Shown piece by piece: positions 1-19,749 of a DNA stretch of 64,000 nt (the stretch's first letter is position 1; every line of letters begins with the position of its first letter). Source of the DNA: Escherichia coli (lineage in GTDB: Bacteria; Pseudomonadota; Gammaproteobacteria; Enterobacterales; Enterobacteriaceae). The position numbers and the translations under genes are program-made. The stretch lies in assembly GCF_044324875.1 (NCBI RefSeq), contig NZ_CP172185.1; one strand, given 5' to 3'. The notes under the pieces are model-generated. The model was not told the origin of the DNA and made no database searches. It saw only the letters and a list, made by a program, of their open reading frames with translations.

Positions 1-117
1 CAAAATGAAGGCCGGTGACCAGATACCACAGTTGAACGATAAACAGAAACCTGCTGATAAAACACCGTGGCGACATGACAAAACGCCAGAGCAAAAACCG
101 TAAGCGCATTATTCGTC

Positions 118-420
118 TTGTGGAACTCTGGCCTGAGTCATTCAACCGGGAAAAAAACAAAACCACTTAAAGTGGGGATACCTGACGACCTGATACAGGA
201 TATCGCCATCCGAGAACTGGCGTTTGGCGCTGGTACATTACATGCAGCAGTGGCGTCTTATGTGCAGTCTCCGCGCTATTACCGTGCGTTAATAGCAGGT
301 GGCGCCCGTTACAACCTGAACGGTCAGCCGTGCGGGGAAGTGACACCACAGGAACAGAAAGAGGCAGAGACCCGTTTAATGATGCTGAATGACCGACGAA
401 AAGACAGAAAACCTCGTTGA
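118..420 (+). CDS. hypothetical protein (island-borne)
   Basis: 100-aa ORF from the six-frame track; begins with TTG, no ATG near the 5' end; no family recognised; opposite strand to neighbouring island genes. Confidence 0.25.
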   Translation: MWNSGLSHSTGKKTKPLKVGIPDDLIQDIAIRELAFGAGTLHAAVASYVQSPRYYRALIAGGARYNLNGQPCGEVTPQEQKEAETRLMMLNDRRKDRKPR

Positions 421-437
421 CTGCACAACAGCGCTGT

Positions 438-1190
438 TCACTGAGCTGTAATCAATGTACAGCGCTGTACCGGGCGATGGGTAATACCGGTCACAACCGG
501 TAACCCCAGAGACAATGCAACTGTTTTTAACGCAATATACTGGCCGGATGTATCACCCCGGGCAGCCTGAAAACACCTTTCCACCCGGCATTGTCCGTCA
601 GCACTTATCACCCGCCATGTCTGTTGCAATAAATCCACCCGTTGCGAACATTCTTCATCAACCGTGGCACTGACCCGTGGATGGCAAATGCTCGTCTGGC
701 TGAGCAGCAACAGGCATCGCATTGTTGCTCCTCCATGTTGTTCCCGCAACCAGCGTAATACCACCGGTGGTGCTGGACTGGCCGTGTGATTACGTTCAGT
801 AATACGCTCGTGCACCTGTCGGTAAAAGGAAGTACAGAATGCATGAATCTGTTGTCCGTTGATGTTTCCTTCTGCCGAATGGAGTGTGAAGTGGACGGCC
901 AGCAGACGCGGCCAGTGATCCACCGCCTGCTGAATAAAACGCCGGATTTCCACCGGCTCTGAAAGTACGGTTTCGGTTATTTGCACGATTTGATCCCCTT
1001 GAATGTTGCTGAACCGGTGTCGGTACGCAGGAAAGCACGCCGAGACCGGTACGATGCCTGTTACAGCGAAGAACGAGGAATGACAGACGGGGGCAGCAGG
1101 TCGCCAGCACCAGGGACAGGGCTGATTTCCACAATACCAACGCTGGTATTTTGCACATTGCCAGCGTACCGGCATTACAACACGTTTCAT
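438..1190 (-). CDS. putative YfjJ/YagK-like (inovirus Gp2-type) island protein
   Basis: ORF 438..1232 trimmed to the ATG at 1190, which overlaps the alpA stop in an ATGA arrangement (possible translational coupling). Weak resemblance to the two paralogs at 1492-3152 (HFTLH..., ...CLLLLS). Family assignment is tentative. Confidence 0.4.
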   Translation of the reverse strand: MKRVVMPVRWQCAKYQRWYCGNQPCPWCWRPAAPVCHSSFFAVTGIVPVSACFPAYRHRFSNIQGDQIVQITETVLSEPVEIRRFIQQAVDHWPRLLAVHFTLHSAEGNINGQQIHAFCTSFYRQVHERITERNHTASPAPPVVLRWLREQHGGATMRCLLLLSQTSICHPRVSATVDEECSQRVDLLQQTWRVISADGQCRVERCFQAARGDTSGQYIALKTVALSLGLPVVTGITHRPVQRCTLITAQ

Positions 1191-1423
1191 GCGGCGACTC
1201 CCCGTGATGCTTCGATGCGCTGCTGCATCCACTGCTCCACTTCGCTTCTGTACCAGCGGCTGCTGCGGCCCAGTTTGATGGGTTTAGGGAAATGGCCTTC
1301 ACTGATCAGCTTGTAAAACCATTTGTCGGTCATACCAGTGAAGCTGGTGATGTAGTTCATGTCGATCAGGGGATCGTCGGCACGCAGCAATACGCTGTCG
1401 TGACCTGTCATTGAGGTCAACAT
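1187..1423 (-). CDS. alpA: AlpA-family prophage transcriptional regulator
   Basis: 78-aa protein with the C-terminal region FTGMTDKWFYKLISEGHFPKPIKLGRSSRWYRSEVEQWM, typical of AlpA/CP4-57 regulatory proteins; start may be an internal Met. Confidence 0.7.
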   Translation of the reverse strand: MLTSMTGHDSVLLRADDPLIDMNYITSFTGMTDKWFYKLISEGHFPKPIKLGRSSRWYRSEVEQWMQQRIEASRGVAA

Positions 1424-1491
1424 GGTCAGAATGTCCTCTGTGAGATTTATGAATGTTGGGCAAATGCGGGTGAATCTGCTGAGCTGAGCTT

Positions 1492-2064
1492 TCAGAGCTG
1501 GCCTGCTACGGGATACCAGGGATTACCGGCGAGGTAACGGGCTTCCGGATCGCGCACACCACGACGATCGCGGGCGAAATCACTGAACGCCCATATCAGC
1601 TCTTTGAGTCTCTCTTCGCAGTCCGGTGAACGGGGATCCAGCAGCACATCCCGGGTAATCTGCTTCTGGTACGGTGCCGCTTCACCCGGTGACGCGAAGC
1701 CCAGTACGTTGCTCCAGGCATCCAGAATCAGCCGATCCAGTTCAGGGCCGTCGAAATATTCCTCCCTGACGCACAGCACCACGTGGTATTCCGGTTTTTC
1801 AGGATGACGAGTCAGGAGCCAGCAGAGATCACGTCCGGGGGTTGCATTCATCAGCGCACTGACGGTTTCGATAAAGGCCATACCGAACCAGGTTTTTCTG
1901 TCGCTGAAGATGTTGCCATGTTCCCCCGGCAGACGAAGCAGGATCCGCCGTATTCGGGAGCAGGGCTGCTCACGCAGCGCACGCTCAAGGACACCGATAA
2001 CTTTGCTCTGATAAGATGGCCAGAAGGGCGCCATGCTATAGTCGAAATAAGGGATAGCATTCAT
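1492..2064 (-). CDS. YfjJ/YagK-family paralog, probably N-terminally degenerate
   Basis: ORF 1492..2094 (TTG start); first ATG at 2064 gives MNAIPYF..., alignable to MNQPIH... of the paralog at 2421..3152. The conserved leader element lies about 160 bp further upstream (2231-2261) with no in-frame ATG in between. Confidence 0.4.
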   Translation of the reverse strand: MNAIPYFDYSMAPFWPSYQSKVIGVLERALREQPCSRIRRILLRLPGEHGNIFSDRKTWFGMAFIETVSALMNATPGRDLCWLLTRHPEKPEYHVVLCVREEYFDGPELDRLILDAWSNVLGFASPGEAAPYQKQITRDVLLDPRSPDCEERLKELIWAFSDFARDRRGVRDPEARYLAGNPWYPVAGQL

Positions 2065-2230
2065 AAGATATGTTCCGTTATACGCAGCCCACAACGCGTC
2101 CTGCCCGTGGATGCGCTGACGTGTTATGGCTTGCGTATGGGGTTGATGGAATAAGTGAAAAACCGCGGCAGAACGGGAAGATCAGGTAACCGACAAGGGA
2201 CAGAACACCGGATGCAGGTTCAGAATGAAT

Positions 2231-2261
2231 GATCTCCGTTGACTTCGGTTCACATCATTAA
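2231..2261. repeat. conserved leader element, copy A (GATCTCCGTTGACTTCGGTTCACATCATTAA)
   Basis: Direct repeat of the element at 3160-3195; the shared core GATCTCCGTTGA...TTCACATCATTAA is visible in the sequence. Confidence 0.6.
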
Positions 2262-2420
2262 GCAGGACAGTAAGGTTTTACCGACGGAGTGTTTCCAGGA
2301 GCGAAAGCAGAGAAAAATACCGTTGCATGACTTCAGGACGACTTTTTCAGAAAACGAGCTAAGGGCGTCAGCCAACGTCCTGTAGCATAAGCTCAGGCAC
2401 CGGATGTCGTTTTACAGGGC

Positions 2421-3152
2421 TCACCTGCCATCCAGTAGACGCCCCGGCCCACGACTGCAACCATAATTACGTTGCCCGGAACCGTTATGCAACTTCGTTT
2501 CATATTTCACGAGATAACTGGCTCTGTTCCGGGCTTTCTGCATCGCTTCCACATCACCACGCTTGACCCAGAGCACAGCGGATTCACCCGGCTTTTTGTC
2601 TGAAGCCTTCCTGGTATCAGAACATCCACCCGACAAAGGCGTATCATCGGAAGAAGGGCGAGCATCAGATGATGTCGGTTTACGGAAAGGCGTCCGCCTG
2701 GAAAAATGAACCAGTCCATTACCCTGCCAGGGCTCAAGATGCAGAGCACTACACCATGCCAGCTTGATCAGTGTCGCCAGCGAAGAAGGAACGGTGAAAT
2801 CCCCTGGCGAGCACCAGGTATCTTTGTTGAGCAGCAATATCACGTGATAATGTTTCCTGCCTTTTTCCTTGCCAAACTCCCGGCACCAGAAATAACGCAG
2901 AGTGGTTGCACGCACACGCTTGTTGGCACGTCGTTTTTTCCGCTGGTAAGCCTGAATTTTGGCTTTCAGGGATGCAAAAAAACGAGAAATCACCGCTGAA
3001 TCCGGATCGGGATCCATGATGGTGACAGGCATATACTCAGGGAAACGTAAATCCACCCGGATTAACGAGACGGCACGGTGCTGCGCCAGGGCACTGTCGA
3101 GAAGGCTGTCAAAACGGGATAACCAGTAAGCATTATGTATTGGTTGATTCAT
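2421..3152 (-). CDS. YfjJ/YagK-family (inovirus Gp2-like) protein
   Basis: 243-aa protein with LIRVDLRFP and HYHVILLLN motifs as remembered for the YagK/YfjJ family of CP4-type islands; GGAG ribosome-binding site about 10 nt upstream of the ATG on the minus strand. Confidence 0.55.
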   Translation of the reverse strand: MNQPIHNAYWLSRFDSLLDSALAQHRAVSLIRVDLRFPEYMPVTIMDPDPDSAVISRFFASLKAKIQAYQRKKRRANKRVRATTLRYFWCREFGKEKGRKHYHVILLLNKDTWCSPGDFTVPSSLATLIKLAWCSALHLEPWQGNGLVHFSRRTPFRKPTSSDARPSSDDTPLSGGCSDTRKASDKKPGESAVLWVKRGDVEAMQKARNRASYLVKYETKLHNGSGQRNYGCSRGPGRLLDGR

Positions 3153-3159
3153 GATGAGA

Positions 3160-3195
3160 GATCTCCGTTGATTTGGATTGACTTCACATCATTAA
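3160..3195. repeat. conserved leader element, copy B (GATCTCCGTTGATTTGGATTGACTTCACATCATTAA)
   Basis: Immediately 5' of the 2421..3152 start codon on the minus strand (contains its GGAG ribosome-binding site); on the plus strand it contains TTGATT-17 bp-ATTAAT, a promoter-like arrangement. Confidence 0.6.
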
Positions 3196-4282
3196 TCACC
3201 GCAGTAAAACTTTACGGCGTCCTGTCATTAAGCAACACCAGTGGCTCCTGATTAGAACAGAATGAGTTTCCCACGAACAAAAAGACAAACCTACACGCAG
3301 GGTAAAAACACGCAACAACAGCATGAATGGATTTGAAAACAATATGGATGACGAAAAATGTCAAAAGTGAAACGGATCAACAGAACGTGCAAACAAAACG
3401 TCAGAAACGCAATCAGAGCACTTTCTGGCGCTGTGAATCAACAACAACACCAAAACCTACAGCTTAACCACATTACTCAATCACGAATGCGAATGACACG
3501 TTTAAAACCTGTTTACAGATAACGCCGTAACACGATCATCCCCATCACCATCAGAATCGATTTTCTCATCCCGAAAATGTTACGTTTCACTACGCACCAT
3601 AAAAACGATTAACCATCGATAACGTAAATCTCATCTGAATCAAAAAACCAAAACCAATCATCACACTTTCGCAATGCAAGAAGAAAAACCACATCATGAC
3701 GAAAACAATGACCTTACATGAAAAAGCAAAACGTCAGGAATCGTTAATGCCTCAATCTGATTGTTATCAAAACATCCAGAAAGTCGTTTAACAGAATCGT
3801 CGTAAGCACATCGAAAAGAACGTCAGATCACCTCAGGAAAGTTCGGGTTGATTTAGCGTAAAGATACTTTTCTCAGCTTAACGTCGAAACACAAACCAAA
3901 AACCACAAACAACCAAAGCTCAGGAAAGGTTAAACGTCACATCAGTAAAATCGAATAGCAGATTGATTGCTTAAACAGAAAGGTTTTACAGCAGCTTTAA
4001 ACTGATTTTAGCTAACGTAAAGATTTACTAAACTGGATGAGTTTCAGACAAAGCAATGTGTACAGCAATGCTTAATGAAAACACTTATAGGGCTGTTTAT
4101 GAAAACACGTGTATGTCTGGTAAAACACTTAGTAGAAAATACGTGTATAACACTTACTGAAATGCTTAGTAAAAATACTTAGTAAAATATGTAGACTGGC
4201 CCCCTGAATCTCCAGACAACCAGTATCACTTAAATAAGTGATAGTCTTAATACTAGTTTTTAGACTAGTCATTGGAGAACAG

Positions 4283-4648
4283 ATGATTGATGTCTTAGGG
4301 CCGGAGAAACGCAGACGGCGTACCACACAGGAAAAGATCGCAATTGTTCAGCAGAGCTTTGAACCGGGGATGACGGTCTCCCTCGTTGCCCGGCAACATG
4401 GTGTAGCAGCCAGCCAGTTATTTCTCTGGCGTAAGCAATACCAGGAAGGAAGTCTTACTGCTGTCGCCGCCGGAGAACAGGTTGTTCCTGCCTCTGAACT
4501 TGCTGCCGCCATGAAGCAGATTAAAGAACTCCAGCGCCTGCTCGGCAAGAAAACGATGGAAAATGAACTCCTCAAAGAAGCCGTTGAATATGGACGGGCA
4601 AAAAAGTGGATAGCGCACGCGCCCTTATTGCCCGGGGATGGGGAGTAA
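4283..4648 (+). CDS. insC: IS2 transposase OrfA (InsC)
   Basis: [56 protein letters not shown]... matches remembered IS2 InsC (121 aa). Confidence 0.95.
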
Positions 4649-5511
4649 GCTTAGTCAGCCGTTGTCTCCGGGTGTCGCGTGCGCAGTTGCACGTCATTCT
4701 CAGACGAACCGATGACTGGATGGATGGCCGCCGCAGTCGTCACACTGATGATACGGATGTGCTTCTCCGTATACACCATGTTATCGGAGAGCTGCCAACG
4801 TATGGTTATCGTCGGGTATGGGCGCTGCTTCGCAGACAGGCAGAACTTGATGGTATGCCTGCGATCAATGCCAAACGTGTTTACCGGATCATGCGCCAGA
4901 ATGCGCTGTTGCTTGAGCGAAAACCTGCTGTACCGCCATCGAAACGGGCACATACAGGCAGAGTGGCTGTGAAAGAAAGTAATCAGCGATGGTGCTCTGA
5001 CGGGTTCGAGTTCCGCTGTGATAACGGAGAAAAACTGCGAGTCACGTTCGCGCTGGACTGCTGTGACCGTGAGGCACTGCACTGGGCGGTCACTACGGGC
5101 GGCTTCAACAGTGAAACAGTACAGGACGTCATGCTGGGAGCGGTGGAACGCCGCTTCGGCAACGAGCTTCCGGCGTCTCCAGTAGAGTGGCTGACGGATA
5201 ATGGTTCATGCTACCGGGCTAATGAAACACGGCAGTTTGCCCGGATGTTGGGGCTTGAACCGAAGAGCACGGCGGTGCGGAGTCCGGAGAGTAACGGCAT
5301 AGCAGAGAGCTTCGTGAAAACGATAAAGCGTGACTACATCAGTGTCATGCCCAAACCAGACGGGTTAACGGCAGCAAAGAACCTTGCAGAGGCGTTCGAG
5401 CATTATAACGAATGGCATCCGCATAGTGCACTGGGTTATCGCTCGCCACGGGAATATCTACGGCAGCAAGCCAGTAATGGGTTAAGTGATAACAGGTGTC
5501 TGGAAATATAG
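4606..5511 (+). CDS. insD: IS2 transposase OrfB (InsD)
   Basis: 301-aa protein [34 protein letters not shown]... matches remembered IS2 InsD; overlaps insC as in IS2. Confidence 0.95.
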
Positions 5512-6227
5512 GGGCAAATCCAATATGTGTAGAATTATCTATTTAAAAAGATATGTATATAACACTTAATAAAAACATGTGTATATAGTATCATACCGAC
5601 ATTCTCAACATCTTCAGACTTCCATACATACTGGGTGTTGATTTCTCACTTTTACAGCCAGCATGGAGTTTTCTGTCCTAAAAACAGAGCAGATTTACTC
5701 TGGAATTATTTTTCTGCCCCCGTATTTCAGGCCCCAGAAAAGACAATCCGAAGCAAACCGTTTGTCAGCCTCCATATCATCTTTTACCCCCGGAAAGTGA
5801 TCGCGTTTTACAACCAGAATGACAGCCATACTGATTATGTCGTCTCCCGGCCCCCTTCACATATAACATGCATGTCTGTCATTGCTTACTGCTCCACATG
5901 ACCGGATTTCACATACAGGATGCACATTCAGTGTTTTTATCGCCACTATAACAGACAGATTACTGTCGTCTTTACTCTTCAGATTGTTAATCTGACCACA
6001 AGAACAGCCGAACGGCAAAACGCCCTCCACAAGGGGCACATGAACCATAGTTGATAGCATGTTTTTCCTAATCAAGGAATAGTTCAGGAATATTTTATTG
6101 CATTAATAACTGGCGAATAATCGTTCTGTGAACACAAAATGCTTTTATTTGTAAATTTTATTGCATTGCACTCGTTTTATTGATATGGGGTTTAATAACA
6201 GATAACCCGGAAAGAAGGAGAAAACAG

Positions 6228-7019
6228 ATGACATTACGGATTAACGATCAGGGGCGAGATAAACAGAATCAATTTTTATCGAAAAATGGAGAAAATCTGA
6301 ATTCGTTAAAATCGCGTCATGTGCAGGATAGGCATTTACCTGAATGGCTTAAGGATAAAGTTGCAGCATTCTGGTTTTGTCTGGTGATAAAGGATATGAA
6401 AGTGTCAGGGAGCAGTTACTATGAACTTACCATGCAACTTCCCACTTCTGAAGAATCTGTTTGCATCAGTAAGCTGTCATCCTCAACCCATGAGATTCGG
6501 CTGGAGATCATCAGGCGATGGATTGATAGTGTAGCACAGATAGAAACGGAAGCTTTTACTAAAAATCTCGTTGATGCCATCTATAAAAACTGGAAGGAAA
6601 TCGGGAACAAAAACCAGGCTACATGGCTTAAAAAAAATCCGGAACAACTCGAGTGGGCATGGAAATATATTAACATTCGTATTCCCGAGTCACATTTAAC
6701 CTGGTTTTGCCCCGTCAATAACGAAGAGAAACGCATTGCCATCTTAGCATTGCTTAAAATACTGTATCCCGGAGATATACCATGCCAGTACAACGACAAA
6801 GAGTTTCATGTCGGGATCTGCGCTGAAGAACATTTTTACAGAAGAATGCACGACGCTTTCAGAAAACAGTTTATCGACGGGAAAAAAGATAAACGGGTAC
6901 AAATTAACGTAAAGATATCACCGTCCGCAAAAAGCGCTCTGGACAGACTGACCAGAGCGAGGAAAACAACACAGCAGGCTATTCTGGAACAACTGATTCT
7001 GAACGGTAGACTGGATTAA
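6228..7019 (+). CDS. hypothetical protein with a possible C-terminal ribbon-helix-helix-like DNA-binding tail
   Basis: ORF 6180..7019 trimmed to the ATG at 6228, preceded by AAGGAG; AT-rich; C-terminus VQINVKISPSAKSALDRLTRARKTTQQAILEQLI resembles strand-helix RHH motifs (inference). No family recognised. Confidence 0.45.
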   Translation: MTLRINDQGRDKQNQFLSKNGENLNSLKSRHVQDRHLPEWLKDKVAAFWFCLVIKDMKVSGSSYYELTMQLPTSEESVCISKLSSSTHEIRLEIIRRWIDSVAQIETEAFTKNLVDAIYKNWKEIGNKNQATWLKKNPEQLEWAWKYINIRIPESHLTWFCPVNNEEKRIAILALLKILYPGDIPCQYNDKEFHVGICAEEHFYRRMHDAFRKQFIDGKKDKRVQINVKISPSAKSALDRLTRARKTTQQAILEQLILNGRLD

Positions 7020-8002
7020 CTTTCACTACTTCCACTCCTGGCAGTTTTCCTCTTTTTGTAGTGTCTCCCGGCTGCAGGCATCAGGTACTTTTCCGTCATT
7101 TCGTTGCAGAACTCTTCAATGTAGTTAATCAGCTTCTGGTGTGCTTTCACCTTTTCTTCCCCGGGGGACGCTTTCAGATAAATGTCCTCCTTTTCCACAA
7201 GTGTATTTATAAACTCTCCCGGACATCCCTGGTTATAAAGCAACGTGAAAAACAACACATTCCCCAGTCTCTCCAGTAACTGCGATTTAACCCTGTATTG
7301 TTGTTTGCTGAGGATTGATTGTTTTATAAAGCTTAGTCTTGTTAAAAGTTGTTCAAATCCCGGTTCCAGTTTAAAAACAGATTTTAATACCAGGGACTGA
7401 TACTCCTGATAAAAAAGTTCAAACGTCGGGGATGCAGACTGACGAACAGATTTGGCTACAACCCATGGACTAAATCCCATGATTGGGATTTCCTTCGCTC
7501 CCTCCAGCGCACTCAGAGGTAGTCCAGCAATCCATGCGTCCAGCTTAGCCGAATCAATATCCCCGCTCAAAACCTCATACAAACTGCCCGTGAACGGTTG
7601 AGTCGGTTTTTTTGTTGTTTTACCTTCTGATTGCCTGAATCCATCCACTTTTCTCCGGATATTACGCGGAATCAGCATAAAAGGCGGGACATTAAGTGAT
7701 AAACGTTTACCCGTCATACGATACCAGTGGCCCACCTCAACCTTAATCCGTGTATCTGGCCTTGTATCTGGCCTTGTATCTGGCCTTAGCTCAAGTGCTA
7801 TTATGTTAAGCAGGTACAGATAACGCACCGTATAACAGTCAAAATGTTTCTCCGGATCAAACGGCTCTGATCGTTCTCTGCACACAAGTCCGCTGCGCTT
7901 CAGTATTCGCTGGGTATCTTTCCAGGCCTTACTCTGAAGAATGGTGGTAACTCTGGCTTTATTAGCAATCTCACGCAGCGCATCACTTTGTTGTGCCGTC
8001 AT
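7016..8002 (-). CDS. hypothetical protein containing a tandem (RPDT)x3 repeat
   Basis: ORF 7016..8017 trimmed to the ATG at 8002, preceded by GGAGG; AT-rich; 12-bp unit repeated three times at 7752-7787; convergent with and overlapping the 3' end of 6228..7019 by 4 bp. Confidence 0.45.
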   Translation of the reverse strand: MTAQQSDALREIANKARVTTILQSKAWKDTQRILKRSGLVCRERSEPFDPEKHFDCYTVRYLYLLNIIALELRPDTRPDTRPDTRIKVEVGHWYRMTGKRLSLNVPPFMLIPRNIRRKVDGFRQSEGKTTKKPTQPFTGSLYEVLSGDIDSAKLDAWIAGLPLSALEGAKEIPIMGFSPWVVAKSVRQSASPTFELFYQEYQSLVLKSVFKLEPGFEQLLTRLSFIKQSILSKQQYRVKSQLLERLGNVLFFTLLYNQGCPGEFINTLVEKEDIYLKASPGEEKVKAHQKLINYIEEFCNEMTEKYLMPAAGRHYKKRKTARSGSSES

Positions 8003-8108
8003 CTCTTCCCTCCACACTTTGTCACTCCAGATTTTTTCACGTCCATATTACCTGAATGATAAACCGGATTAGTGTGATCCGGTTCAGCGAAATCAACAGG
8101 ATACCGGT

Positions 8109-8993
8109 ATGTCATTCAGCCATTCTTCCCTCTCTGCACAAGTGAAATCATATCTGACGTTTCTTCCTGAAGAAATTCGCCAGAAAATCCTTGAACATCT
8201 CCACGGTGTTATTCATTACGAGCCCGTGATTGGCATTATGGGTAAATCCGGCACAGGCAAAAGCAGCCTGTGTAATGCCATTTTTCAGTCCCATATCTGC
8301 GCCACGCATCCCCTGAACGGCTGCACCCGCCAGGCTCATCACCTCACCCTGCAGATCGGTGAACGCAGAATGACGCTGGTCGATCTGCCCGGCATTGGTG
8401 AGACACCGCAGCATGATCAGGAATACCGGGCACTTTATCATCAGTTGCTACCGGAACTGGATCTGATTATCTGGATCCTGCGGGCTGATGAACGTGCGTA
8501 TGCTGCCGATATTGCCATGCATCAGTTTTTACTGAATGAAGATGCCGATCCCTCGCGTTTTCTGTTTGTTCTCAGCCATGCCGATCGCGTGTTTCCTGCT
8601 GAAGAATGGAACGACACAGAAAAATGCCCGTCCCGTCAGCAGGAACTCTCACTGGCGACAGTAACAGCCCGGGTGGCCACCCTGTTCCCGTCATCATTTC
8701 CGGTACTCTCCGTTGCAGCGCCTGTCGGCTGGAATCTTCAGGCACTGGTGTCACTGATGATCCACGCACTGCCACCACAGGCAACCAGCGCGGTTTATTC
8801 GCATATCCGGAATGAAAAGCGCACTGCGCAGGATCAGCAACACGCACAGCAGGCTTTTGGTGACGCCATCGGCCAGAGTTTTGACGCTGCCATTGCCCGG
8901 TTCAGCTTTCCGGCCTGGATGCTGCAGCTTCTGCGCAAAGCCCGTGATCGCATTATCCGCCTGCTGATCACACTGTGGGATCGCCTGTTCTGA
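8109..8993 (+). CDS. YeeP/YkfA/YfjP-family GTPase (50S ribosome-binding GTPase domain)
   Basis: P-loop GIMGKSGTGKSSLCNA and DLPG motif; layout as remembered for YkfA/YfjP/YeeP of CP4 islands. Full length here (294 aa). Confidence 0.7.
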   Translation: MSFSHSSLSAQVKSYLTFLPEEIRQKILEHLHGVIHYEPVIGIMGKSGTGKSSLCNAIFQSHICATHPLNGCTRQAHHLTLQIGERRMTLVDLPGIGETPQHDQEYRALYHQLLPELDLIIWILRADERAYAADIAMHQFLLNEDADPSRFLFVLSHADRVFPAEEWNDTEKCPSRQQELSLATVTARVATLFPSSFPVLSVAAPVGWNLQALVSLMIHALPPQATSAVYSHIRNEKRTAQDQQHAQQAFGDAIGQSFDAAIARFSFPAWMLQLLRKARDRIIRLLITLWDRLF

Positions 8994-9102
8994 ATGTCCC
9001 CGCTTTTTGACCGGCCCCGGCGATAACCAGGAAACGCATTTCCGGTTGCGTCACCACAATGCTGAAGGGCTTCGGTAAACCCTCATTCATTTCATCCATC
9101 AG

Positions 9103-9133
9103 GCCGCGTCTTCTCCGTGAGACGCGGCTTTTT
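9103..9133 (+). terminator. putative intrinsic terminator downstream of the GTPase gene
   Basis: GCCGCGTC-loop-GACGCGGC stem followed by TTTTT. Confidence 0.55.
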
Positions 9134-9178
9134 CATTGATTACGTCATTCAGTCTTAACCACTGATAAGGAGCAAAGT

Positions 9179-9997
9179 ATGCGATTAGCCAGTCGTTTTG
9201 GTTATGCGAACCAGATACGCCGTGACCGTCCGCTGACCCGTGAAGAGCTGATGCACCATGTGCCCGGGATTTTCGGGGAAGATAAACACACCTCCCGGAG
9301 CCGGAACTATACATACATCCCCACCATCACCGTGCTGGAAAGCCTGCAGCGGGAAGGCTTTCAGCCATTCTTCGCCTGCCAGACCCGCGTACGTGACCCG
9401 GGTCGCCGGGGGTATACCAAACACATGCTGCGTCTGCGCCGTGACGGGGAGATAAACGGACAACATGTCCCTGAAATTATTCTGCTCAACTCTCATGACG
9501 GTACCTCCAGCTACCAGATGCTGCCGGGTTACTTCAGGTTCGTCTGCCAGAACGGATGCGTCTGCGGTCAGTCTCGGGGGGAAGTGCGTGTTCCGCACCG
9601 GGGAAATGTGGTGGACAGAGTCATTGAAGGGGCTTACGAGGTGGTGGGCGTGTTTGACCGGATAGAGGAGAAGCGTGATGCCATGCAGTCGCTGGTCCTG
9701 CCGCCACCGGCACGCCAGGCGCTGGCACAGGCGGCACTGACTTACCGTTATGGTGACGAACATCAGCCCGTCACCACCGCCGACATTCTGACACCACGAC
9801 GCCGGGAGGATTACGGTAAGGACCTGTGGAGTGCTTATCAGACCATCCAGGAGAATATGCTGAAAGGCGGGATTTCCGGTCGCAGTGCAAAAGGAAAACG
9901 TATCCATACCCGGGCCATTCACAGCATTGATACCGATATAAAACTCAACCGCGCATTGTGGGTGATGGCAGAAACGCTGCTGGAGAGCATGCGCTGA
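9179..9997 (+). CDS. DUF932-family protein (YfjQ/YafZ-like)
   Basis: 272-aa protein in the position and with the general sequence character of YafZ/YfjQ homologues that follow the GTPase in CP4-type islands. Confidence 0.6.
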   Translation: MRLASRFGYANQIRRDRPLTREELMHHVPGIFGEDKHTSRSRNYTYIPTITVLESLQREGFQPFFACQTRVRDPGRRGYTKHMLRLRRDGEINGQHVPEIILLNSHDGTSSYQMLPGYFRFVCQNGCVCGQSRGEVRVPHRGNVVDRVIEGAYEVVGVFDRIEEKRDAMQSLVLPPPARQALAQAALTYRYGDEHQPVTTADILTPRRREDYGKDLWSAYQTIQENMLKGGISGRSAKGKRIHTRAIHSIDTDIKLNRALWVMAETLLESMR

Positions 9998-10088
9998 TGC
10001 TGTTTCCCTGAAAGTGCAGCCCTGACTCACGTCTGTACCAGTCCCCAGGCATTCTTCCATTCATTTACTTTTTATAAGGAATCATCTC

Positions 10089-10574
10089 ATGACAACCTTT
10101 TCGCATAGCTCCACCACACCTTCTGTTTCCGCAACTACTGCATCAGGGAATAACCAGTCTCAACTGGTTGCCACTCCCGTCCCTGATGAACAGCGCATCA
10201 GCTTCTGGCCGCAGCACTTTGGCCTCATTCCACAGTGGGTGACCCTGGAGCCCCGTGTCTTCGGCTGGATGGACCGTCTGTGCGAAGACTACTGCGGTGG
10301 TATCTGGAATCTGTACACCCTGAACAACGGCGGGGCATTTATGGCCCCCGAACCGGATGATGATGATGACGAAACATGGGTACTGTTCAATGCCATGAAC
10401 GGTAACCGCGCTGAAATGAGCCCGGAAGCCGCCGGCATTGCCGCCTGTCTGATGACGTACAGTCATCACGCCTGCCGTACGGAGTGTTATGCCATGACGG
10501 TTCATTATTACCGTCTGCGGGATTACGCCCTGCAGCATCCGGAATGCAGCGCCATTATGCGCATCATTGACTGA
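10089..10574 (+). CDS. antirestriction protein (ArdB/KlcA-like; YfjX/YafX family)
   Basis: 161-aa acidic protein (DDDDDETW...), position between the DUF932 gene and the radC-like gene as in K-12 CP4 islands. Confidence 0.6.
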   Translation: MTTFSHSSTTPSVSATTASGNNQSQLVATPVPDEQRISFWPQHFGLIPQWVTLEPRVFGWMDRLCEDYCGGIWNLYTLNNGGAFMAPEPDDDDDETWVLFNAMNGNRAEMSPEAAGIAACLMTYSHHACRTECYAMTVHYYRLRDYALQHPECSAIMRIID

Positions 10575-10589
10575 AAGGGGGCCGGAACA

Positions 10590-11066
10590 ATGCAACAGAT
10601 TTCCTTTCTGCCCGGAGAAATGACAACCAGAGAGCGCAGCCTCATTCAGCGGGCCCTGAAAGCCCTGGACCGCCATCTTCATGAACCCGGCGTGGCCTTC
10701 ACCTCCACGCATGCGGCACGGGAATGGCTGATTCTGAACATGGCGGGACTGGAGCGTGAAGAATTCCGGGTGCTGTATCTGAACAACCAGAATCAGCTGA
10801 TTGCCGGTGAAACCCTCTTCACCGGCACCATCAACCGCACGGAAGTCCATCCCCGGGAAGTGATTAAACGCGCCCTGTACCACAATGCCGCTGCCGTGGT
10901 GCTGGCGCACAATCACCCGTCCGGTGAAGTCACACCCAGCAAGGCAGACCGCCTTATCACGGAACGTCTGGTACAGGCGCTGGCCCTGGTGGATATCCGG
11001 GTGCCGGACCATCTGATAGTCGGTGGCAGCCAGGTTTTCTCCTTTGCCGAACATGGTCTGCTTTAA
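10590..11066 (+). CDS. RadC-like JAB-domain protein (YeeS/YkfG/YfjY family)
   Basis: JAMM motif region HNHPSGEVTPSKADRLITERL typical of RadC-like proteins. Confidence 0.75.
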   Translation: MQQISFLPGEMTTRERSLIQRALKALDRHLHEPGVAFTSTHAAREWLILNMAGLEREEFRVLYLNNQNQLIAGETLFTGTINRTEVHPREVIKRALYHNAAAVVLAHNHPSGEVTPSKADRLITERLVQALALVDIRVPDHLIVGGSQVFSFAEHGLL

Positions 11067-11128
11067 CCCGTCACAACCACATCACACCTGTTTTCACTTT
11101 TATCTTCTGTCTTCAGAGGTATCCCATT

Positions 11129-11350
11129 ATGAAAATCATCACCCGTGGTGAAGCCATGCGTATTCACCAACAGCATCCTGCATCCCGTCTTTTTCCGTTC
11201 TGTACCGGCAAATACCGCTGGCACGGTGGCACTGAAGCGTATACCGGTCGTGAAGTGCAGGATATTCCCGGTGTGCTGGCCGTGTTTGCAGAACGCCGTA
11301 AGGACAGTTTTGGTCCGTATGTCCGGCTGATGAGCGTCACCCTGAACTGA
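11129..11350 (+). CDS. DUF987-family protein (YeeT/YkfH-like)
   Basis: 73-aa protein in the conserved position between the radC-like gene and the CbeA/CbtA module. Confidence 0.6.
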   Translation: MKIITRGEAMRIHQQHPASRLFPFCTGKYRWHGGTEAYTGREVQDIPGVLAVFAERRKDSFGPYVRLMSVTLN

Positions 11351-11364
11351 GTCAGGGCATTCTG

Positions 11365-12009
11365 ATGAGCAGAATTATCACCATCACAGTGTATACGCTG
11401 GATGAACTTTCCTGCCCGGCACGGGAAAAAGCCCGCGACGGGTACCGTCAGCATCATGCTGACAGCAGCTGGTATGAAAACGTGTATGAGGACTTCAGGG
11501 CGGTCTGTGACATTGTCGGGATTGCCCTCCGCCAGCGAGTTATCCGGCTCAGCAGCGGCAGGTTTATGGAAGAGCCGTGCATCTGGTTCAGCGGCTTCAG
11601 CAGCCAGGGGGACGGAGCCTGTTTTGACGGGCGCTGGCACTGGCAGCCGGCAACAGCCAGGAAAATCCGGGAATATGCCCCGCAGGACCGTGAGCTTCAT
11701 CGTATCGCGGATGCCCTGCAGGCGGTGCAGAAGCGTAACTTCCGGCAGCTTCAGGCTGAAATCCGCCACCGGGGACGCTACTGCCATCCGTACAGCATGG
11801 ATATCACCGTCACCCGGGACAGTCCGACTGGTCAGGCTATGACAGCCGATGCGGAAGCCGCTGTCAGCGAAGCCCTGCGCGACCTGGCCTTCTGGCTGTA
11901 CCGTCAACTGGAAAACGAGTACGACCAGATGACCTCAGACGCCGCTGTGGATGAGGCCATTCTCATCAATGCATACATCTTCACCGAAACCGGTCAGCGC
12001 ACCGGCTGA
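11365..12009 (+). CDS. hypothetical protein (214 aa) between DUF987 and cbeA
   Basis: Plus-strand ORF with mixed, protein-like composition. The competing minus-strand ORF 11164..11907 is Pro/Ala/Arg/Gly-rich, as expected of an antisense artefact in GC-rich DNA. No family recognised. Confidence 0.45.
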   Translation: MSRIITITVYTLDELSCPAREKARDGYRQHHADSSWYENVYEDFRAVCDIVGIALRQRVIRLSSGRFMEEPCIWFSGFSSQGDGACFDGRWHWQPATARKIREYAPQDRELHRIADALQAVQKRNFRQLQAEIRHRGRYCHPYSMDITVTRDSPTGQAMTADAEAAVSEALRDLAFWLYRQLENEYDQMTSDAAVDEAILINAYIFTETGQRTG

Positions 12010-12058
12010 CCTGTCATCGTTAAACCATTCTTAACCACTTTTCAGAGAGGATTTTATC

Positions 12059-12427
12059 GTGTCAGACACACTCTCCGGGATAACTCATCCCGACGACAAT
12101 CACGACCGCCCCTGGTGGGGGCTTCCCTGCACAGTGAGGCCCTGTTTTGGCGCCCGTCTGGTGCAGGAGGGTAACCGCCTGCATTACCTTGCCGACCGCG
12201 CCGGCATCAGAGGCCGGTTCAGCGATGCGGATGCATACCATCTGGACCAGGCCTTTCCGCTGCTGATGAAACAACTGGAACTCATGCTCACCAGCGGTGA
12301 ACTGAATCCCCGCCATCAGCATACCGTCACGCTGTATGCAAAAGGGCTGACCTGCGAAGCCGACACCCTCGGCAGTTGTGGTTACGTTTATCTGGCTGTT
12401 TATCCGACGCCCGAAACGAAAAAGTAA
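12059..12427 (+). CDS. cbeA: type IV toxin-antitoxin system antitoxin CbeA (YeeU/YfjZ/YagB family)
   Basis: MSDTLSGITHPDDNHDRPWWGLPCTVRPCFGARLVQEGNRLHYLADRAGIRG... near-identical to remembered K-12 YeeU. Confidence 0.85.
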   Translation: MSDTLSGITHPDDNHDRPWWGLPCTVRPCFGARLVQEGNRLHYLADRAGIRGRFSDADAYHLDQAFPLLMKQLELMLTSGELNPRHQHTVTLYAKGLTCEADTLGSCGYVYLAVYPTPETKK

Positions 12428-12517
12428 ACCACCGGAATAACCTTCTGCTCCGGCCAGGTGTTTTCACCACGCCACTCTCCCCATAATTTAATCTCTCATA
12501 TCAGGAAAATCTTCAGT

Positions 12518-12928
12518 ATGAAATTATTACCCGACACACATGTACGGGAGGCATCGTGCTGCCCGTCTCCCGTCACCATCTGGCAGACACTGCTCATCCG
12601 TCTGCTGGACCAGCACTATGGCCTCACACTGAATGACACACCGTTCGCTGATGAACGTGTGATTGAGCAGCATATTGAGGCCGGCATTTCACTGTGCGAT
12701 GCGGTGAACTTTCTCGTTGAAAAATACGCACTGGTACGTACCGACCAGCCGGGATTCAGCGCAGGAGCCCCGTCGCAGTTAATCAACAGCATCGATATTC
12801 TCCGGGCCCGCCGGGCAACAGGCCTGATGACACGTAATAACTACAGAATGGTAAATAACATTACCCTGGGTAGCATCCGGGGGCGAAACGATGAAACTTT
12901 CCCTGACGCTGGAAGCCGACAGCGTTAA
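12518..12928 (+). CDS. cbtA: type IV toxin-antitoxin system toxin CbtA (YeeV/YkfI/YpjF family)
   Basis: Internal Met of ORF 12458..12928; ...[62 protein letters not shown]... matches remembered YeeV. C-terminus differs from K-12 and overlaps the next gene. Confidence 0.8.
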
Positions 12929-13316
12929 CGTACAGGCGCTGAACATGGGGCGAATTGTCGTTGACATTGATGGTGTTGAGCTCACTGAACTGATTAACAA
13001 GGTCGCTGAAAACGGTTATTCACTCCGCGTGGTGGATGAACGTGACGCTACCGAAACACCGGCGACTTCTGCCAGCTCTCATCAGTTGCCGGAAGACAAT
13101 ACAGTGATACAGAGCGTGATGCCATTAACCACTGAAACAGCGCTGGATATCCTCATTGCGTGGCTGCAGGACAATATCGACTGCGGGTCCGGAATTATTT
13201 TCGACAACGATGAGGATAAAACGGATTCGGCAGCACTGCTGCCCTGTATCGAACAGGCCAGAGCAGATATCCGCACCCTGCGCCAGCTGCAGCAGCTTCT
13301 GCACCAGAACCGGTGA
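12891..13316 (+). CDS. YeeW-like protein (DUF5983)
   Basis: 141-aa ORF immediately after and overlapping cbtA, the position of yeeW in CP4-44. Confidence 0.55.
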
Positions 13317-13343
13317 GTCTCACTCACCACGATTCATTAACCT

Positions 13344-13377
13344 GACGCCAGTCCGAATACGACTGGCGTTTTCATTT
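13344..13377 (+). terminator. putative intrinsic terminator after the yeeW-like gene
   Basis: GACGCCAGTC-loop-GACTGGCGT followed by a T-rich tract. Confidence 0.5.
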
Positions 13378-13399
13378 ATCAGAAAAAAGGGAAACAGTT

Positions 13400-14248
13400 A
13401 TGTCAGACATCACCATCTCCCGTCCGGAAGCGCTTAACGGACATACGGACCTTATCTGCTCCACAGATATCCGGCACGTTGTGACGGTACGGAATGAAGC
13501 ACTGCAACAAACCGAAAGGCTTATCCGGCAACTGGCAGAAATCTCAGCAATGACAGAAAGTATTGGCGGTAAAACTGTCCGGGACTGGGCCGTGAAACAG
13601 GATTTTCGCTGTGGCTGCTGGCTGATGGAAAAACCGGAAACCGCAATGAAAGCCATCACCCGTAACCTTGACCGCGAAATCTGGCGTGACCTGATGCAAC
13701 GCTCCGGGATGCTGAGTCTGATGGATGTACAGACGCGTGATTAATGGTACCGTTCACTGGAGGAGGATAATTTCCCGGAAATCAGCGAAGCGAATATCCT
13801 GAGCACGGCTGAACAACTGCACCGTAACAGGTATGAAATGGCTGAACGCGGCGTCATCAACCTCTTCAGGGGACTGAGCCGGACGCACAACAGCAGGTCA
13901 CCCTGTAAATTCGGCAGTAAGATTATCCTCAACAATCTGGTGAAATGGGACTGGTGGGGATTTGGTCTGAACCATGGTCCGCAGGCCGGGCAGCTTGCCG
14001 ACCTGGAAAGGATACTGTATCAGTTCAGCGGCAAACCCATACCCGATTACAGGGACAATATTATCATTCGTCTGGATGAGCACATCCGGTCCGTTCAGGG
14101 TAAAGCGTGCTATGAGGATGAGATGTTCAGCATCAGATACTTCAGGAAGGGCTCCGCGCATATCACGTTTAAACACCCGGAACTGGTGGAGAAGCTGAAT
14201 GCTGTTCTGGCGAAACATTATTCGGTAAAGTTCCATTCTTCTGTATAA
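13400..14248 (+). pseudogene. DUF4942-family gene interrupted by an in-frame TAA (13742-13744)
   Basis: ORFs 13400..13744 and 13838..14248 are in the same frame and joined by an open in-frame stretch (…WYRSLEEDNFPEISEANILSTAEQLHRNRYE…) apart from the single stop; the DUF4942 assignment is from memory of genes that follow cbtA/yeeW. Confidence 0.5.
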
Positions 14249-14555
14249 ACTTACACATCATGGGTATTGTGTCTCGCCCTGAACAAGGCCGACAGGTATA
14301 CTGCATTCGCTGAGTCATTACAGATAATGCCTCAACTGAGTTCAATCTACCTCCATGTACAACAACAATACGATGGGGGCTACATTGGGGGCTATATTTT
14401 CAAGAAAAACGTATATAGTTCAATTAAATCAATAAACTGAAAAAATTTCACCATTCCCCTCTGGGGAGAGGATTAGGGTGAGGGGCGCAAACCCGCTCCG
14501 GGGCCATTAATTACCCTGAATTTGATTATTTACACCACGGTAACAGGAACAACAT

Positions 14556-15215
14556 ATGCAGTTTGACTGGAGTGCCATCTGGCCTGCCATTCCGCTTCTG
14601 ATTGAAGGTGCCAAAATGACCCTGTGGATTTCGGTCCTCGGTTTGGCTGGCGGTCTGGTGATCGGATTGCTGGCAGGTTTTGCACGCACCTTCGGTGGTT
14701 GGATAGCCAACCACGTCGCGCTGGTCTTTATTGAAGTGATCCGCGGCACACCTATCGTCGTCCAGGTGATGTTTATTTATTTCGCCCTGCCGATGGCGTT
14801 TAACGACTTACGCATCGACCCGTTTACTGCGGCGGTGGTCACCATCATGATCAACTCCGGCGCGTACATTGCGGAAATCACGCGTGGTGCGGTGCTGTCT
14901 ATTCACAAAGGTTTTCGTGAAGCAGGACTGGCGCTCGGTCTTTCACGTTGGGAAACCATTCGCTACGTCATTTTACCGCTGGCACTGCGTCGTATGCTGC
15001 CGCCGCTGGGTAACCAGTGGATCATCAGTATAAAAGATACCTCGCTGTTTATTGTTATCGGCGTGGCGGAACTGACCCGTCAGGGGCAAGAAATTATTGC
15101 CGGTAACTTCCGCGCCCTTGAGATCTGGAGCGCCGTGGCGGTGTTCTATCTGATTATTACCCTGGTGCTGAGCTTTATTCTGCGTCGTCTGGAAAGAAGG
15201 ATGAAAATCCTGTGA
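14556..15215 (+). CDS. glnP: glutamine ABC transporter permease GlnP
   Basis: 219 aa; matches remembered K-12 GlnP. Confidence 0.95.
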
Positions 15216-15934
15216 TTGAATTTAAAAACGTCTCCAAGCATTTTGGTCCAACCCAGGTGCTGCACAATATCGATTTGAACATTGCTCAGGGCGAAGTCGT
15301 GGTGATTATCGGGCCGTCCGGTTCCGGTAAATCGACCCTGCTGCGCTGCATCAACAAACTGGAAGAAATCACTTCCGGCGATCTGATTGTCGATGGCCTG
15401 AAGGTTAACGATCCGAAAGTTGACGAGCGCCTGATTCGCCAGGAAGCAGGTATGGTGTTCCAGCAGTTTTACCTCTTCCCGCATCTGACGGCGCTGGAAA
15501 ACGTCATGTTTGGTCCGCTACGCGTGCGTGGCGCGAACAAAGAAGAGGCGGAAAAACTGGCGCGTGAGCTGCTGGCGAAAGTCGGCCTGGCAGAACGCGC
15601 TCACCACTACCCTTCCGAGCTTTCTGGTGGTCAGCAACAGCGTGTGGCGATTGCCCGTGCGCTGGCGGTAAAACCGAAAATGATGCTGTTCGATGAACCG
15701 ACTTCCGCTCTTGACCCGGAACTGCGCCATGAAGTGCTGAAGGTTATGCAGGACCTGGCTGAAGAAGGGATGACGATGGTGATCGTGACCCACGAAATCG
15801 GTTTTGCCGAGAAAGTAGCTTCGCGCCTGATCTTTATCGACAAAGGCCGGATTGCGGAAGATGGCGATCCGCAGGTGTTAATCAAGAACCCACCGAGCCA
15901 GCGCTTGCAGGAATTTTTGCAGCACGTCTCTTAA
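15212..15934 (+). CDS. glnQ: glutamine ABC transporter ATP-binding protein GlnQ
   Basis: 240 aa; Walker [10 protein letters not shown] and signature LSGGQQQR; matches remembered K-12 GlnQ. Confidence 0.95.
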
Positions 15935-15942
15935 CTTCTCAG

Positions 15943-15966
15943 CCTCCCTTTCCCCCGAAAGGGAGG
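15943..15966 (+). terminator. GC-rich hairpin downstream of glnQ (possible terminator)
   Basis: CCTCCCTTT-CCCCCG-AAAGGGAGG; no clear U-tract, so low confidence. Confidence 0.3.
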
Positions 15967-16050
15967 CACACCAGATTCCTCTCATTTAAAATCGCCCCTC
16001 CCCCAGCATCTATACTTATCTTTTTGCTCTGTTTTCTCACTGGAGGAGTC

Positions 16051-18276: not shown

Positions 18277-19199
18277 CGTTGGCGATTGACAAAACGGCGG
18301 CGCTGCTCGTCGTTCATAAAGGTCCAGGCAATAAAGCGACTCTGCTTTTGCCCCTGGGCCATCTCTTTTTTTACCACCTTCACCGCGCCCACGTCCGTCA
18401 GAGCACGATACAACGGCGGTAAGTTTTCACCACGAGATACCAGCGAGGTAAACCACATCACCTGCTTCGCGAAGCCTTTGCTCTCTTCAATCATCTTTTT
18501 GATAAAAGCGACTTCACCGCCTTCACACCACAACTCCTGTTGCTGACCACCAAAGTTCAGTACATCGTCTTTGTTCAGCCCCAGGTTACGGCGTTTACGT
18601 TCACTACCTGCCCGTGCCGCAGCGGCGGAATCGTGGAATGGCGGGTTACACAAGGTCGCGTCGTATTGCTCGTTTTTATGGATGATGCCGTTAAAAATCG
18701 CCCCACTCTCTTTTTGCCGACGCAGACGAATGGCGCGGTTAAGCCCCGGATTAGCACTGATGATCGCCTGCGCACTGCTTAACGCCTGGCTGCTGGTTTC
18801 ACTACCAGTAAAACGCCAGCCATATTCATGTACGCCAATCAGCGGGTAAATACAGTTCGCACCAACGCCGATATCCAGAATGCTGGCATTCGCTGGAATT
18901 GTTCCGCTTGCTTCTGCCAGTAAATCGGCAAGGTGATGAATATAATCCGCCCGGCCCGGTACTGGTGGGCAGAGAAAACCGTCGGGGATATCCCAGTTCG
19001 CTACGGCGTAAAAATGGGCCAGCAACGCCTTATTGAGCGCCTTCACCGCCAGCGGATTGGCAAAGTCTACGCTTTGCTCCCCGGCGGGTGTAAGCGTGAG
19101 GAATTGCCTGAGTTCAGGATTGACCTGACAAAGCGTGGCGAGATCGTAGCGGCTGTGATGACGGTTGCGCGGATGCAACCCCGGTTTCTGGGCGGACAT
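18273..19199 (-). CDS. rlmF: 23S rRNA m6A1618 methyltransferase RlmF
   Basis: [24 protein letters not shown]... matches remembered K-12 RlmF (308 aa); ORF track extends further upstream. Confidence 0.9.
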
Positions 19200-19474
19200 A
19201 GCATTCTCCTTTAAGCAGCGGCGTAAGATACCCGCATAACGCGACAGGGTAAATATCTGGCTGCGTTTATCATTTCTATAAACCTTCACATGGCTATGGT
19301 TTATGGCAATTCATCATAAAAATCAGCATCATGCATGTCATTGATTTGTCTTATTTTGTAAAAATATATCGTTCAAAAAATAAGCGTATCTCTGTCAATT
19401 TTTTGCGTCATTTTCATCGCCCAGGCGACCTACACTTATCAGGCACTACCCGTTGTATTTATGAGGATGTCATT

Positions 19475-19735
19475 ATGAAAAAGTGCCTCACACTACTGAT
19501 TGCCACCGTCCTGAGCGGAATCTCTCTCACGGCTTATGCCGCGCAACCGATGAGTAACCTGGACAGCGGTCAGCTACGGCCCGCCGGTACCGTTTCGGCA
19601 ACTGGCGCATCAAACCTAAGCGATCTGGAGGATAAACTGGCAGAAAAAGCGCGCGAGCAAGGCGCGAAAGGTTATGTCATTAATTCCGCAGGCGGAAATG
19701 ACCAGATGTTCGGTACTGCAACCATCTACAAATAA
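19475..19735 (+). CDS. mcbA: McbA (YbiM), DUF1471-family periplasmic protein
   Basis: MKKCLTLLIATVLSGISLTAYA signal peptide and C-terminal ...TATIYK; paralog of ybiJ. Confidence 0.85.
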   Translation: MKKCLTLLIATVLSGISLTAYAAQPMSNLDSGQLRPAGTVSATGASNLSDLEDKLAEKAREQGAKGYVINSAGGNDQMFGTATIYK

Positions 19736-19749
19736 CCCCACCAACGTAA

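Follow-up and report, generated by a model that had tools for sequence, protein, structure and literature searches.

A 64,000-nucleotide stretch of Escherichia coli contig NZ_CP172185.1 (here called the window) carries in its first 14 kb the right-hand section of a CP4-like integrative island, and within that section lie two convergent genes for hypothetical proteins, which we name A and B. We find that the pair is a conserved backbone module of the CP4-like islands of Enterobacterales and not separately acquired cargo. Its function is most likely transcriptional control of the island. In the specific form that we tentatively favor, and to which we give slightly less than an even chance, the pair is a regulatory module in which A is a ribbon-helix-helix (RHH) repressor and B its partner of novel fold. 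The RefSeq coding sequences (CDSs) have the same coordinates as the two convergent open reading frames (ORFs) of 263 and 328 amino acids (aa) given in a preliminary description of this DNA:

6228–7019, plus strand: gene A, 263 aa; ribosome-binding site AAGGAG, 8 nt ahead of the ATG; RefSeq WP_000175256.1, hypothetical protein.
6882–7004, plus strand: RHH-like module of A (aa ~219–259), with a KRVQINVKIS strand, a helix, a turn, and a helix.
7016–8002, minus strand: gene B, 328 aa; GGAGG, 9 nt ahead of the ATG; RefSeq WP_029396404.1, hypothetical protein.
7751–7787, minus strand: 12-bp tandem repeat in B found by Tandem Repeats Finder (TRF), 3.1 copies with 100% matches, encoding RPDT three times (RPDTRPDTRPDTR).

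A and B Occupy a Conserved Slot in the Island Backbone

The pair sits between two divergently oriented island operons, with A facing an alpA/Gp2-like operon and B facing an operon of GTPase, antirestriction, and toxin-antitoxin (TA) genes. We looked up the contigs of nine B homologs and compared them with the window. In 10 of 10 contexts, a B homolog is followed by a convergent A homolog (256–320 aa next to the nine looked-up homologs), which answers the question of co-occurrence raised in the preliminary description. The pairing is kept where the A and B proteins are only ~21–30% identical, and protein-level conservation of both ORFs down to such identities shows that they are not chance ORFs.

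The pair and its flanks were seen in E. coli loci L002 to L009, and the same order recurs in metagenomic loci L010 to L018, whose B proteins are 22–30% identical; family members are also present in Salmonella, Serratia, Citrobacter, and Hafnia. Beyond B there is usually a divergent YeeP-like GTPase gene at a distance of ~100 bp, and after it come genes for DUF932, antirestriction, RadC, and CbeA/CbtA. On the far side of A, the divergent AlpA/Gp2-like operon is found wherever a locus reaches that far. Neither ORF is disrupted in any of the nine loci that contain both in full, and A of L014 is cut only by the end of its contig. As expected of backbone genes, position and orientation are conserved across divergent islands and host genera. 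The 3′ ends of the two genes overlap by 4 bp at their stop codons in the window, likewise by 4 bp in L002, L006, and L010; the overlap is longer in L015 and L018 (range 4 to 26 bp), while L013, L014, L016, and L017 have a gap of 13–121 bp instead.

B-like DNA was detected at 821 places in 742 of 5,426 complete E. coli genomes, with up to three copies, and is always annotated as “hypothetical”; the exact A/B pair is found in 52 genomes. A/B are absent from 50,697 phage records and occur in 2 of 72,556 plasmids and in a single IMG/VR contig, so that the pair is essentially chromosomal.

The GC fractions of A and B are 0.41 and 0.45, compared with 0.52–0.61 in the GTPase-to-CbtA module to their right. 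The preliminary description had noted this contrast correctly and had taken it as a sign of separate acquisition, a conclusion that is not supported. In all loci examined, A and B are richer in AT than their flanks (GC 0.35–0.45), so that low GC is a trait of the module and not a sign of recent separate acquisition. The same backbone slot is occupied in every island examined, and relatives exist in other genera.

Divergence is distributed unevenly over the pair. Judged from aligned sequences, the N-terminal domain of A diverges far faster than either the RHH module of A or B: its identity drops to 42% and 21% where the RHH module keeps 71% and 42%, and between the window and L002 the identities are 42% for the N-terminal domain, 71% for the RHH module, and 85–92% for B. 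Across loci, the pairwise identities of A and B are weakly correlated (r = 0.37). The block that varies between islands begins ~160 bp upstream of A, runs through A, and extends into the 3′ half of B; the flanking noncoding spacer and the GTPase-proximal part of the B–GTPase spacer are far better conserved.

A Probably Encodes a DNA-Binding Regulator

Protein A consists of a variable helical N-terminal domain (aa 1–215) and a predicted C-terminal RHH-like DNA-binding domain. An RHH-like C terminus had been suspected in the preliminary description; its signal is weak in the window protein and recurs in homologs. Window A matches Pfam RHH_1 with E = 0.065 over aa 226–259 and a RepA/CopB-like NCBIfam model with E = 0.057. 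Among 12 A homologs, 5 match RHH_1 at E ≤ 0.1, at the same position as the C-terminal signal of window A. PF10723 (RepB-RCR_reg) is matched by 1 of the 12 at E ≤ 0.001 and by 4 at E ≤ 0.1, with a best E of 4.6e-5, and precomputed database matches to this family, weak or faint, exist for five divergent A homologs.

The C-terminal pattern RVQINVKIS-PSAKSALDRLTRA-RKTT-QQAILEQLIL has the secondary structure expected of an RHH domain, namely an alternating hydrophobic/polar strand and two helices with a short turn. Consistently, the AlphaFold model of A shows helices 232–245 and 249–259 after an extended segment, 221–228, whose low confidence fits a strand that finds its partner only on dimerization. 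This weak but recurrent signal suggests that A ends in an RHH-like module and that A is probably a DNA-binding regulator. The N-terminal domain has no match in Pfam, NCBIfam, or PADLOC. Close relatives of A are few, and a profile search extends the family to proteins of Serratia, Salmonella, and Citrobacter.

B Is a Mosaic Protein with a Predicted Novel Fold

Searches of A and B against Pfam, NCBIfam, PHROGs, and PADLOC returned nothing significant apart from the weak C-terminal RHH signal of A. For both proteins, zero families were found in PADLOC-DB v2 at E ≤ 1, profile searches of PDB sequences gave no match, and Pfam run on every member of both alignments yielded the RHH signal of A only. 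AlphaFold modeling of B with 23 close homologs was uninformative (predicted local distance difference test score, pLDDT, of 44.8). A fusion model, in which A, a 30-aa linker, and B (residues 294–621) were folded with a paired alignment of divergent pairs, has a pLDDT of 74.9 overall; the score exceeds 85 over most of B and lies at 75–91 in the structured parts of A. Foldseek searches with the model found nothing in the PDB at E < 1, and the matches in AFDB50 are uncharacterized family members only, from E. coli, Salmonella, Hafnia, and Citrobacter.

B is confidently modeled, and its predicted fold has no characterized relative. A and B would each define a new protein family, and they share no homology (hhalign probability 0.7%). 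The preliminary description, which recognized no family for either protein, is borne out by these searches. A literature search found no paper that mentions WP_000175256.1 or WP_029396404.1, and a profile scan of genome contigs with one family alignment (A4) gave no match. The prophage regulator RgdR, encoded on a P4-like element, is an unrelated protein of 99 aa.

In the nine full-length pairs, every A and B protein is basic (pI 8.2–9.8). Their invariant positions are aromatic, aliphatic/hydrophobic, or basic residues plus Gln/Glu, and the alignments of A and B contain no conserved His/Asp/Cys/Ser set of the catalytic type. B itself is mostly helical, without a known domain or fold, and has the conserved motifs AW.(N/D)TQ..LKRSG, IRRK..(G/A)F.Q, GSLY, and LLE.LG.ALFF.LLY. 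Its close relatives form 67 clusters, all from Escherichia/Enterobacteriaceae, and 17 distant relatives of full length, with 22–32% identity, came from an exhaustive profile search.

The protein is a mosaic, in which the first ~205 aa are 83–85% identical among E. coli variants and the C-terminal ~120 aa exist in at least two types with 38% identity between types. The RPDT repeat, to which the preliminary description had drawn attention, is real but not a family feature: most homologs have one copy, P0001 and P0057 have two, and window B has three. This variation from a mostly single copy points to recent 12-bp slippage and not to a functional hallmark, and the repeat is incidental.

In L019 (NZ_CP123346.1; 5677–6900, minus strand), the slot of B is filled by a 407-aa hypothetical protein, WP_001773856.1, and there is no A gene. 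This remote B homolog (hhalign 94.7%, E 6e-8) has an extra N-terminal CxxxxC...CxxH motif, which may be a built-in DNA-binding module in place of A. The solo variant is compatible with a need of B for a DNA-binding module.

Candidate Control Elements Around the Pair

The noncoding regions next to A and B, and the end of A itself, contain the following elements:

6092–6104 and 6155–6167, plus strand: 13-bp direct repeats ATTTTATTGCATT with a TGCA core, spaced 63 bp apart; candidate A operator.
6076–6092, plus strand: GGAATA twice at 11-bp spacing, with a GAATA core that is invariant in three distinct aligned upstream sequences.
8003–8108, unstranded: divergent promoter region of B and the GTPase gene, 106 bp.
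8045–8052: conserved ATATTACC element within the B–GTPase spacer.
8062–8084: palindrome AACCGGAT-N7-ATCCGGTT with 8-bp arms, within the B–GTPase spacer.
6935–6959, minus strand: terminator-like hairpin and UUUUU tract for the B transcript (−15.1 kcal/mol, z = −2.95).

The sequence TTATTGCATT occurs exactly twice in the window, at 6095–6104 and 6158–6167, each time inside one of the 13-bp repeats upstream of A, and had been proposed in the preliminary description as a possible operator. In a prespecified test, ATTGCAT was sought within 200 bp upstream of A in eight other loci and compared with mononucleotide shuffles; it is present in 4 of the 8 loci, compared with 0 of 5,000 shuffles. Its position is −128 in L006 and L015 and −131 in the window, and L010 has ATGCAT twice at a distance of 64 bp, close to the 63 bp of the window. 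CopG, the type member of the RHH families nearest to A, recognizes two TGCA boxes overlapping its promoter (PMC2724298), a resemblance that is suggestive but not proof. Near matches to TTATTGCATT that cluster at 57.0–58.3 kb were rejected as chance occurrences in a gtrABC-like region of 29–34% GC. As to the GAATA elements, the upstream alignment has a fourth row, L001, which is identical to the window, and L002 contains GAATAG four times at ~11- to 12-bp spacing.

Between the Gp2/YagK-like gene and A there is a noncoding spacer of 1.74 kb (3153–4191 and 5528–6227; base fractions A 0.36 and G 0.16), divided in the window by a copy of IS2. It is better conserved than gene A, with 80–91% identity in L002, L004, L006, L019, and L020, where A/B are strongly different or A is absent. 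The spacer contains no ORF of more than 54 aa, and Rfam gave no match in positions 1–15000; it could be a long leader, a noncoding RNA, or an origin region. Iteron-like direct repeats are found in it on both sides of the IS2 insertion (4060–4190 and 5544–5587), with units GAAAACAC(T/G)T.. at 24- to 50-bp spacings and TAAAAA(G/C)AT(A/G)TGTATATA twice.

On the other side of the pair, the GGTAATAT/ATATTACC element is invariant in distant loci, and the palindrome is conserved in them too. The leader/promoter region of B also contains three imperfect 15-bp direct repeats (8006–8049, consensus TTCACTCCACATTTT, TRF score 44), which read as TGGA(C/G)GTG-like units on the strand of B. The terminator-like hairpin lies 57–85 nt past the stop codon of B and is antisense to the A coding region for RHH helix 1. 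Its position is not conserved in the other loci, which makes it variant-specific, and a scan for promoters and terminators did not rise above shuffles.

A Tentative Model of Island Control

In the mechanism we propose, A would dimerize by its RHH module and bind TGCA-containing sites in its own upstream region. Bound A would then repress its own promoter, the divergent alpA/Gp2-like operon for excision and replication, or both. The variable N-terminal domain may serve as a sensor or oligomerization domain, comparable to the variable domains of the Stl repressors of staphylococcal pathogenicity islands (SaPIs). For B, the invariant AW.NTQ..LKR helix and the IRRK patch would provide binding to nucleic acid or to A, and B would act on the divergent GTPase/antirestriction/TA operon. 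Because no terminator separates A from B, convergent transcription could make their expression mutually antagonistic, as in a switch. We infer the step from an RHH-like module and its position to repression of these promoters, and likewise any role of B and any transcription switch.

Two kinds of known regulators are comparable in part. Like SaPI Stl, A is a mid-sized repressor-like protein encoded divergently to an excision/replication operon, with a predicted DNA-binding module that is kept and a remainder that changes fast between similar islands. Stl uses a helix-turn-helix (HTH) domain, whereas the module of A is RHH-like. The islands studied here also differ in being without packaging genes and without a known inducer or helper, and there is no similarity of sequence or fold. 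Convergent-promoter switches of mobile elements include prgX/prgQ of pCF10 and PR/PL of coliphage 186. As in these, A and B face each other without an intervening terminator, and transcription of each would have to enter the other; unlike these, A and B overlap at the 3′ ends of long coding genes and not at promoters, and the overlap is missing in L013, L014, L016, and L017.

Several observations weigh against the proposed regulatory function. Neither A nor B is tied to transcription by homology or experiment, and the RHH match of window A itself falls short of the Pfam significance threshold. Backbone genes would be expected in most islands of the family, and the pair is not universal: a related GTPase is found at 3,643 places in 2,680 of the 5,426 complete E. 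coli genomes, against 821 places for B. CP4-57 of E. coli K-12 has defense genes in the A/B slot and can still excise. Together, these counts and the case of CP4-57 indicate that the pair is dispensable and that its slot also hosts cargo.

The cis elements call for similar caution. The operator idea for TTATTGCATT is plausible in view of its two copies and the recurrence of ATTGCAT upstream of divergent A genes, but an unbiased k-mer screen of the AT-rich regions upstream of A did no better than shuffled sequence, and the ATTGCAT enrichment depends on only 8 loci and on mononucleotide shuffles. In an island with a very different B-like gene, the sequence from ~8036 to the ATG of the GTPase gene agrees with the window at all but ~3 positions, so that the palindrome and the element travel with the GTPase and not with the type of B.

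A bolder version of the regulatory model, possible but rather unlikely in our judgment, is that A and B form a master switch, not described before, in a class of genomic islands that is very common among enterobacteria; equally novel would be a two-gene defense or addiction system made of two unknown folds. As a master switch, A would be a sensor-repressor that joins a conserved RHH module to a hypervariable domain for sensing a ligand or protein, and B would be an effector or antirepressor of novel fold. The pair would time the expression of the excision/replication genes and of the “establishment” operon with its antirestriction and TA genes; a helper phage or plasmid might, for example, be the trigger. 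Nothing mechanistically unprecedented is evidenced so far.

The regulatory reading is of interest because CP4-like islands are among the commonest integrated elements of E. coli and carry virulence, defense, and toxin-antitoxin genes. A pair placed between two divergent operons, with a predicted DNA-binding module and a candidate operator, is a concrete candidate for the control point of such an island. If the pair instead proves to be a defense or addiction module, it would be a new system at a known hotspot.

Alternative Functions of the Pair

Unlikely, although it has more in its favor than the other alternatives, is a two-gene TA-like addiction or anti-phage/abortive-infection module of novel folds, in which A would act as RHH antitoxin or sensor-repressor and B as the effector. 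RHH domains are typical of type II antitoxins, and the RHH-like module of A, the two-gene unit, and the many TA genes of the mobile island (CbeA/CbtA in the window, ParDE in its near-identical counterpart L001) recall type II systems with the RHH antitoxins ParD, CcdA, or RelB-type. The swapped C-terminal modules of mosaic B and the hypervariable N-terminal domain of A are patterns common in conflict systems, and a TIR-domain gene lies close by in L018. The corresponding slot of K-12 CP4-57, between YfjJ and YfjP, holds variable cargo, AbpAB/YfjKL and RnlAB; it is comparable as a slot between a Gp2/YfjJ-like gene and a YeeP/YfjP-type GTPase gene. The K-12 genes, however, are defense cargo without homology to A/B, which are conserved in the slot across genera and keep a fixed backbone position rather than moving as cargo.

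The architecture of the pair also departs from that of type II systems. A and B are convergent in all loci and are not cotranscribed as an operon of small, codirectional genes; at 263 and 328 aa they are two to three times larger, and the RHH module of A is C-terminal, whereas those of antitoxins are usually N-terminal. The searches gave zero PADLOC families even at E ≤ 1 and no toxin family, fold, or catalytic motif and no nuclease/NTPase domain, and B lacks conserved catalytic-type residues. Finally, B-like genes occur without A, as in L019, an arrangement that should kill the cell if B were a toxin dependent on A.

Quite improbable is a role in copy control, by which A would be a CopG-like repressor of the Gp2/YagK-like rolling-circle-type initiator, B a factor that assists replication or maintenance of the excised circle, and the AT-rich spacer the origin. 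The closest families of A are indeed PF10723, a regulator of rolling-circle replication (RCR) of plasmids, and the CopG-type RHH_1: the C-terminal ~40 aa of the A family give subthreshold to significant matches, with a strand-helix-turn-helix order and a VQINVKIS strand. The operon divergent to A encodes a protein of the REP_ORF2-G2P/YagK_YfjJ type, similar to RCR initiators, in every locus that reaches that side. The TGCA-containing repeat upstream of A is like the TGCA boxes of the CopG operator (PMC2724298), and the conserved 1.74-kb spacer has iteron-like repeats.

An RHH repressor of RCR plasmids, on the other hand, has ~45 aa and is cotranscribed with rep, whereas A is divergent to the initiator-like gene and belongs to a family of 263–366 aa, in which an N-terminal domain of ~215 aa and no known fold precedes a C-terminal RHH module. 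In E. coli, A is 1.7 kb away from the Gp2-like gene, and the ATTGCAT sites adjoin A and not that gene. The proposal also presumes a replication of such islands that is not known to occur, and B is without any link to replication.

That A and B are unrelated genes, adjacent through island history only, or decaying remnants is very improbable: the two are not homologous, their identities are weakly correlated across loci, and a B-like gene can stand alone, but the convergent pairing in 10 of 10 contexts down to 21–30% identity, the intact ORFs in all nine complete loci, the 3′ ends that overlap by 4–26 bp in the window and several loci, and intact CDS annotation in hundreds of genomes make chance adjacency very unlikely.

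Island Context and Other Features of the Window

The backbone of this island family comprises a P4-type integrase, AlpA, a Gp2/YagK-like gene, the A/B pair, a YeeP-like GTPase, DUF932, antirestriction, RadC, and CbeA/CbtA genes. Work published in 2025 on islands of Pseudomonas described a widespread island class with defense cargo, in which AlpA, RadC, Gp2-like, and HTH proteins are likely core functions, and did not describe the A/B pair (PMC12595487). It shows that the general element type is already recognized and that the pair itself is undescribed there. In the window, the following island genes surround A and B:

118–420, plus strand: ORF with a FinO/ProQ-family RNA-chaperone domain, annotated as ProQ/FINO and frameshifted in GF43.
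1187–1423, minus strand: AlpA.
2421–3152, minus strand: Gp2/YagK-YfjJ-like gene.
4192–5522: IS2 copy with a 5-bp target duplication (ATATG), interrupting the long noncoding spacer.
8109–8993, plus strand: YeeP/YkfA-type GTPase.
Rightward of the GTPase, in order: DUF932, antirestriction gene (10089–10574), RadC, DUF987, CbeA/CbtA-type genes, truncated DUF4942 gene, and glnP.

The antirestriction and TA neighbors reported in the preliminary description are thus present as the gene at 10089–10574 and the CbeA/CbtA-type genes. IS2 is missing from near-identical islands of other strains, such as GF43. The FinO/ProQ-like ORF may be relevant if the convergent A and B transcripts act as antisense RNAs.

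Cargo near the module in related islands includes a TIR-domain protein (L018, 9471–10445) and a large protein with HTH and dynamin-like GTPase domains (L006, 10987–12957), consistent with islands that also carry defense genes.

At the right end of the island (13838–14556), the truncated DUF4942 gene is fused straight to glnP. The junction is without an integrase remnant or a tRNA gene (no tRNA in positions 1–20000). It is found in 4 of the 5,426 complete E. coli genomes, and near-identical islands elsewhere adjoin cadC, which suggests a rare rearrangement or a secondary insertion site. Far to the right of the island, at 55940–58702, a gtrA/gtrB/gtrC-like O-antigen modification cluster of 29–34% GC lies beside phage tail-fiber-like genes.

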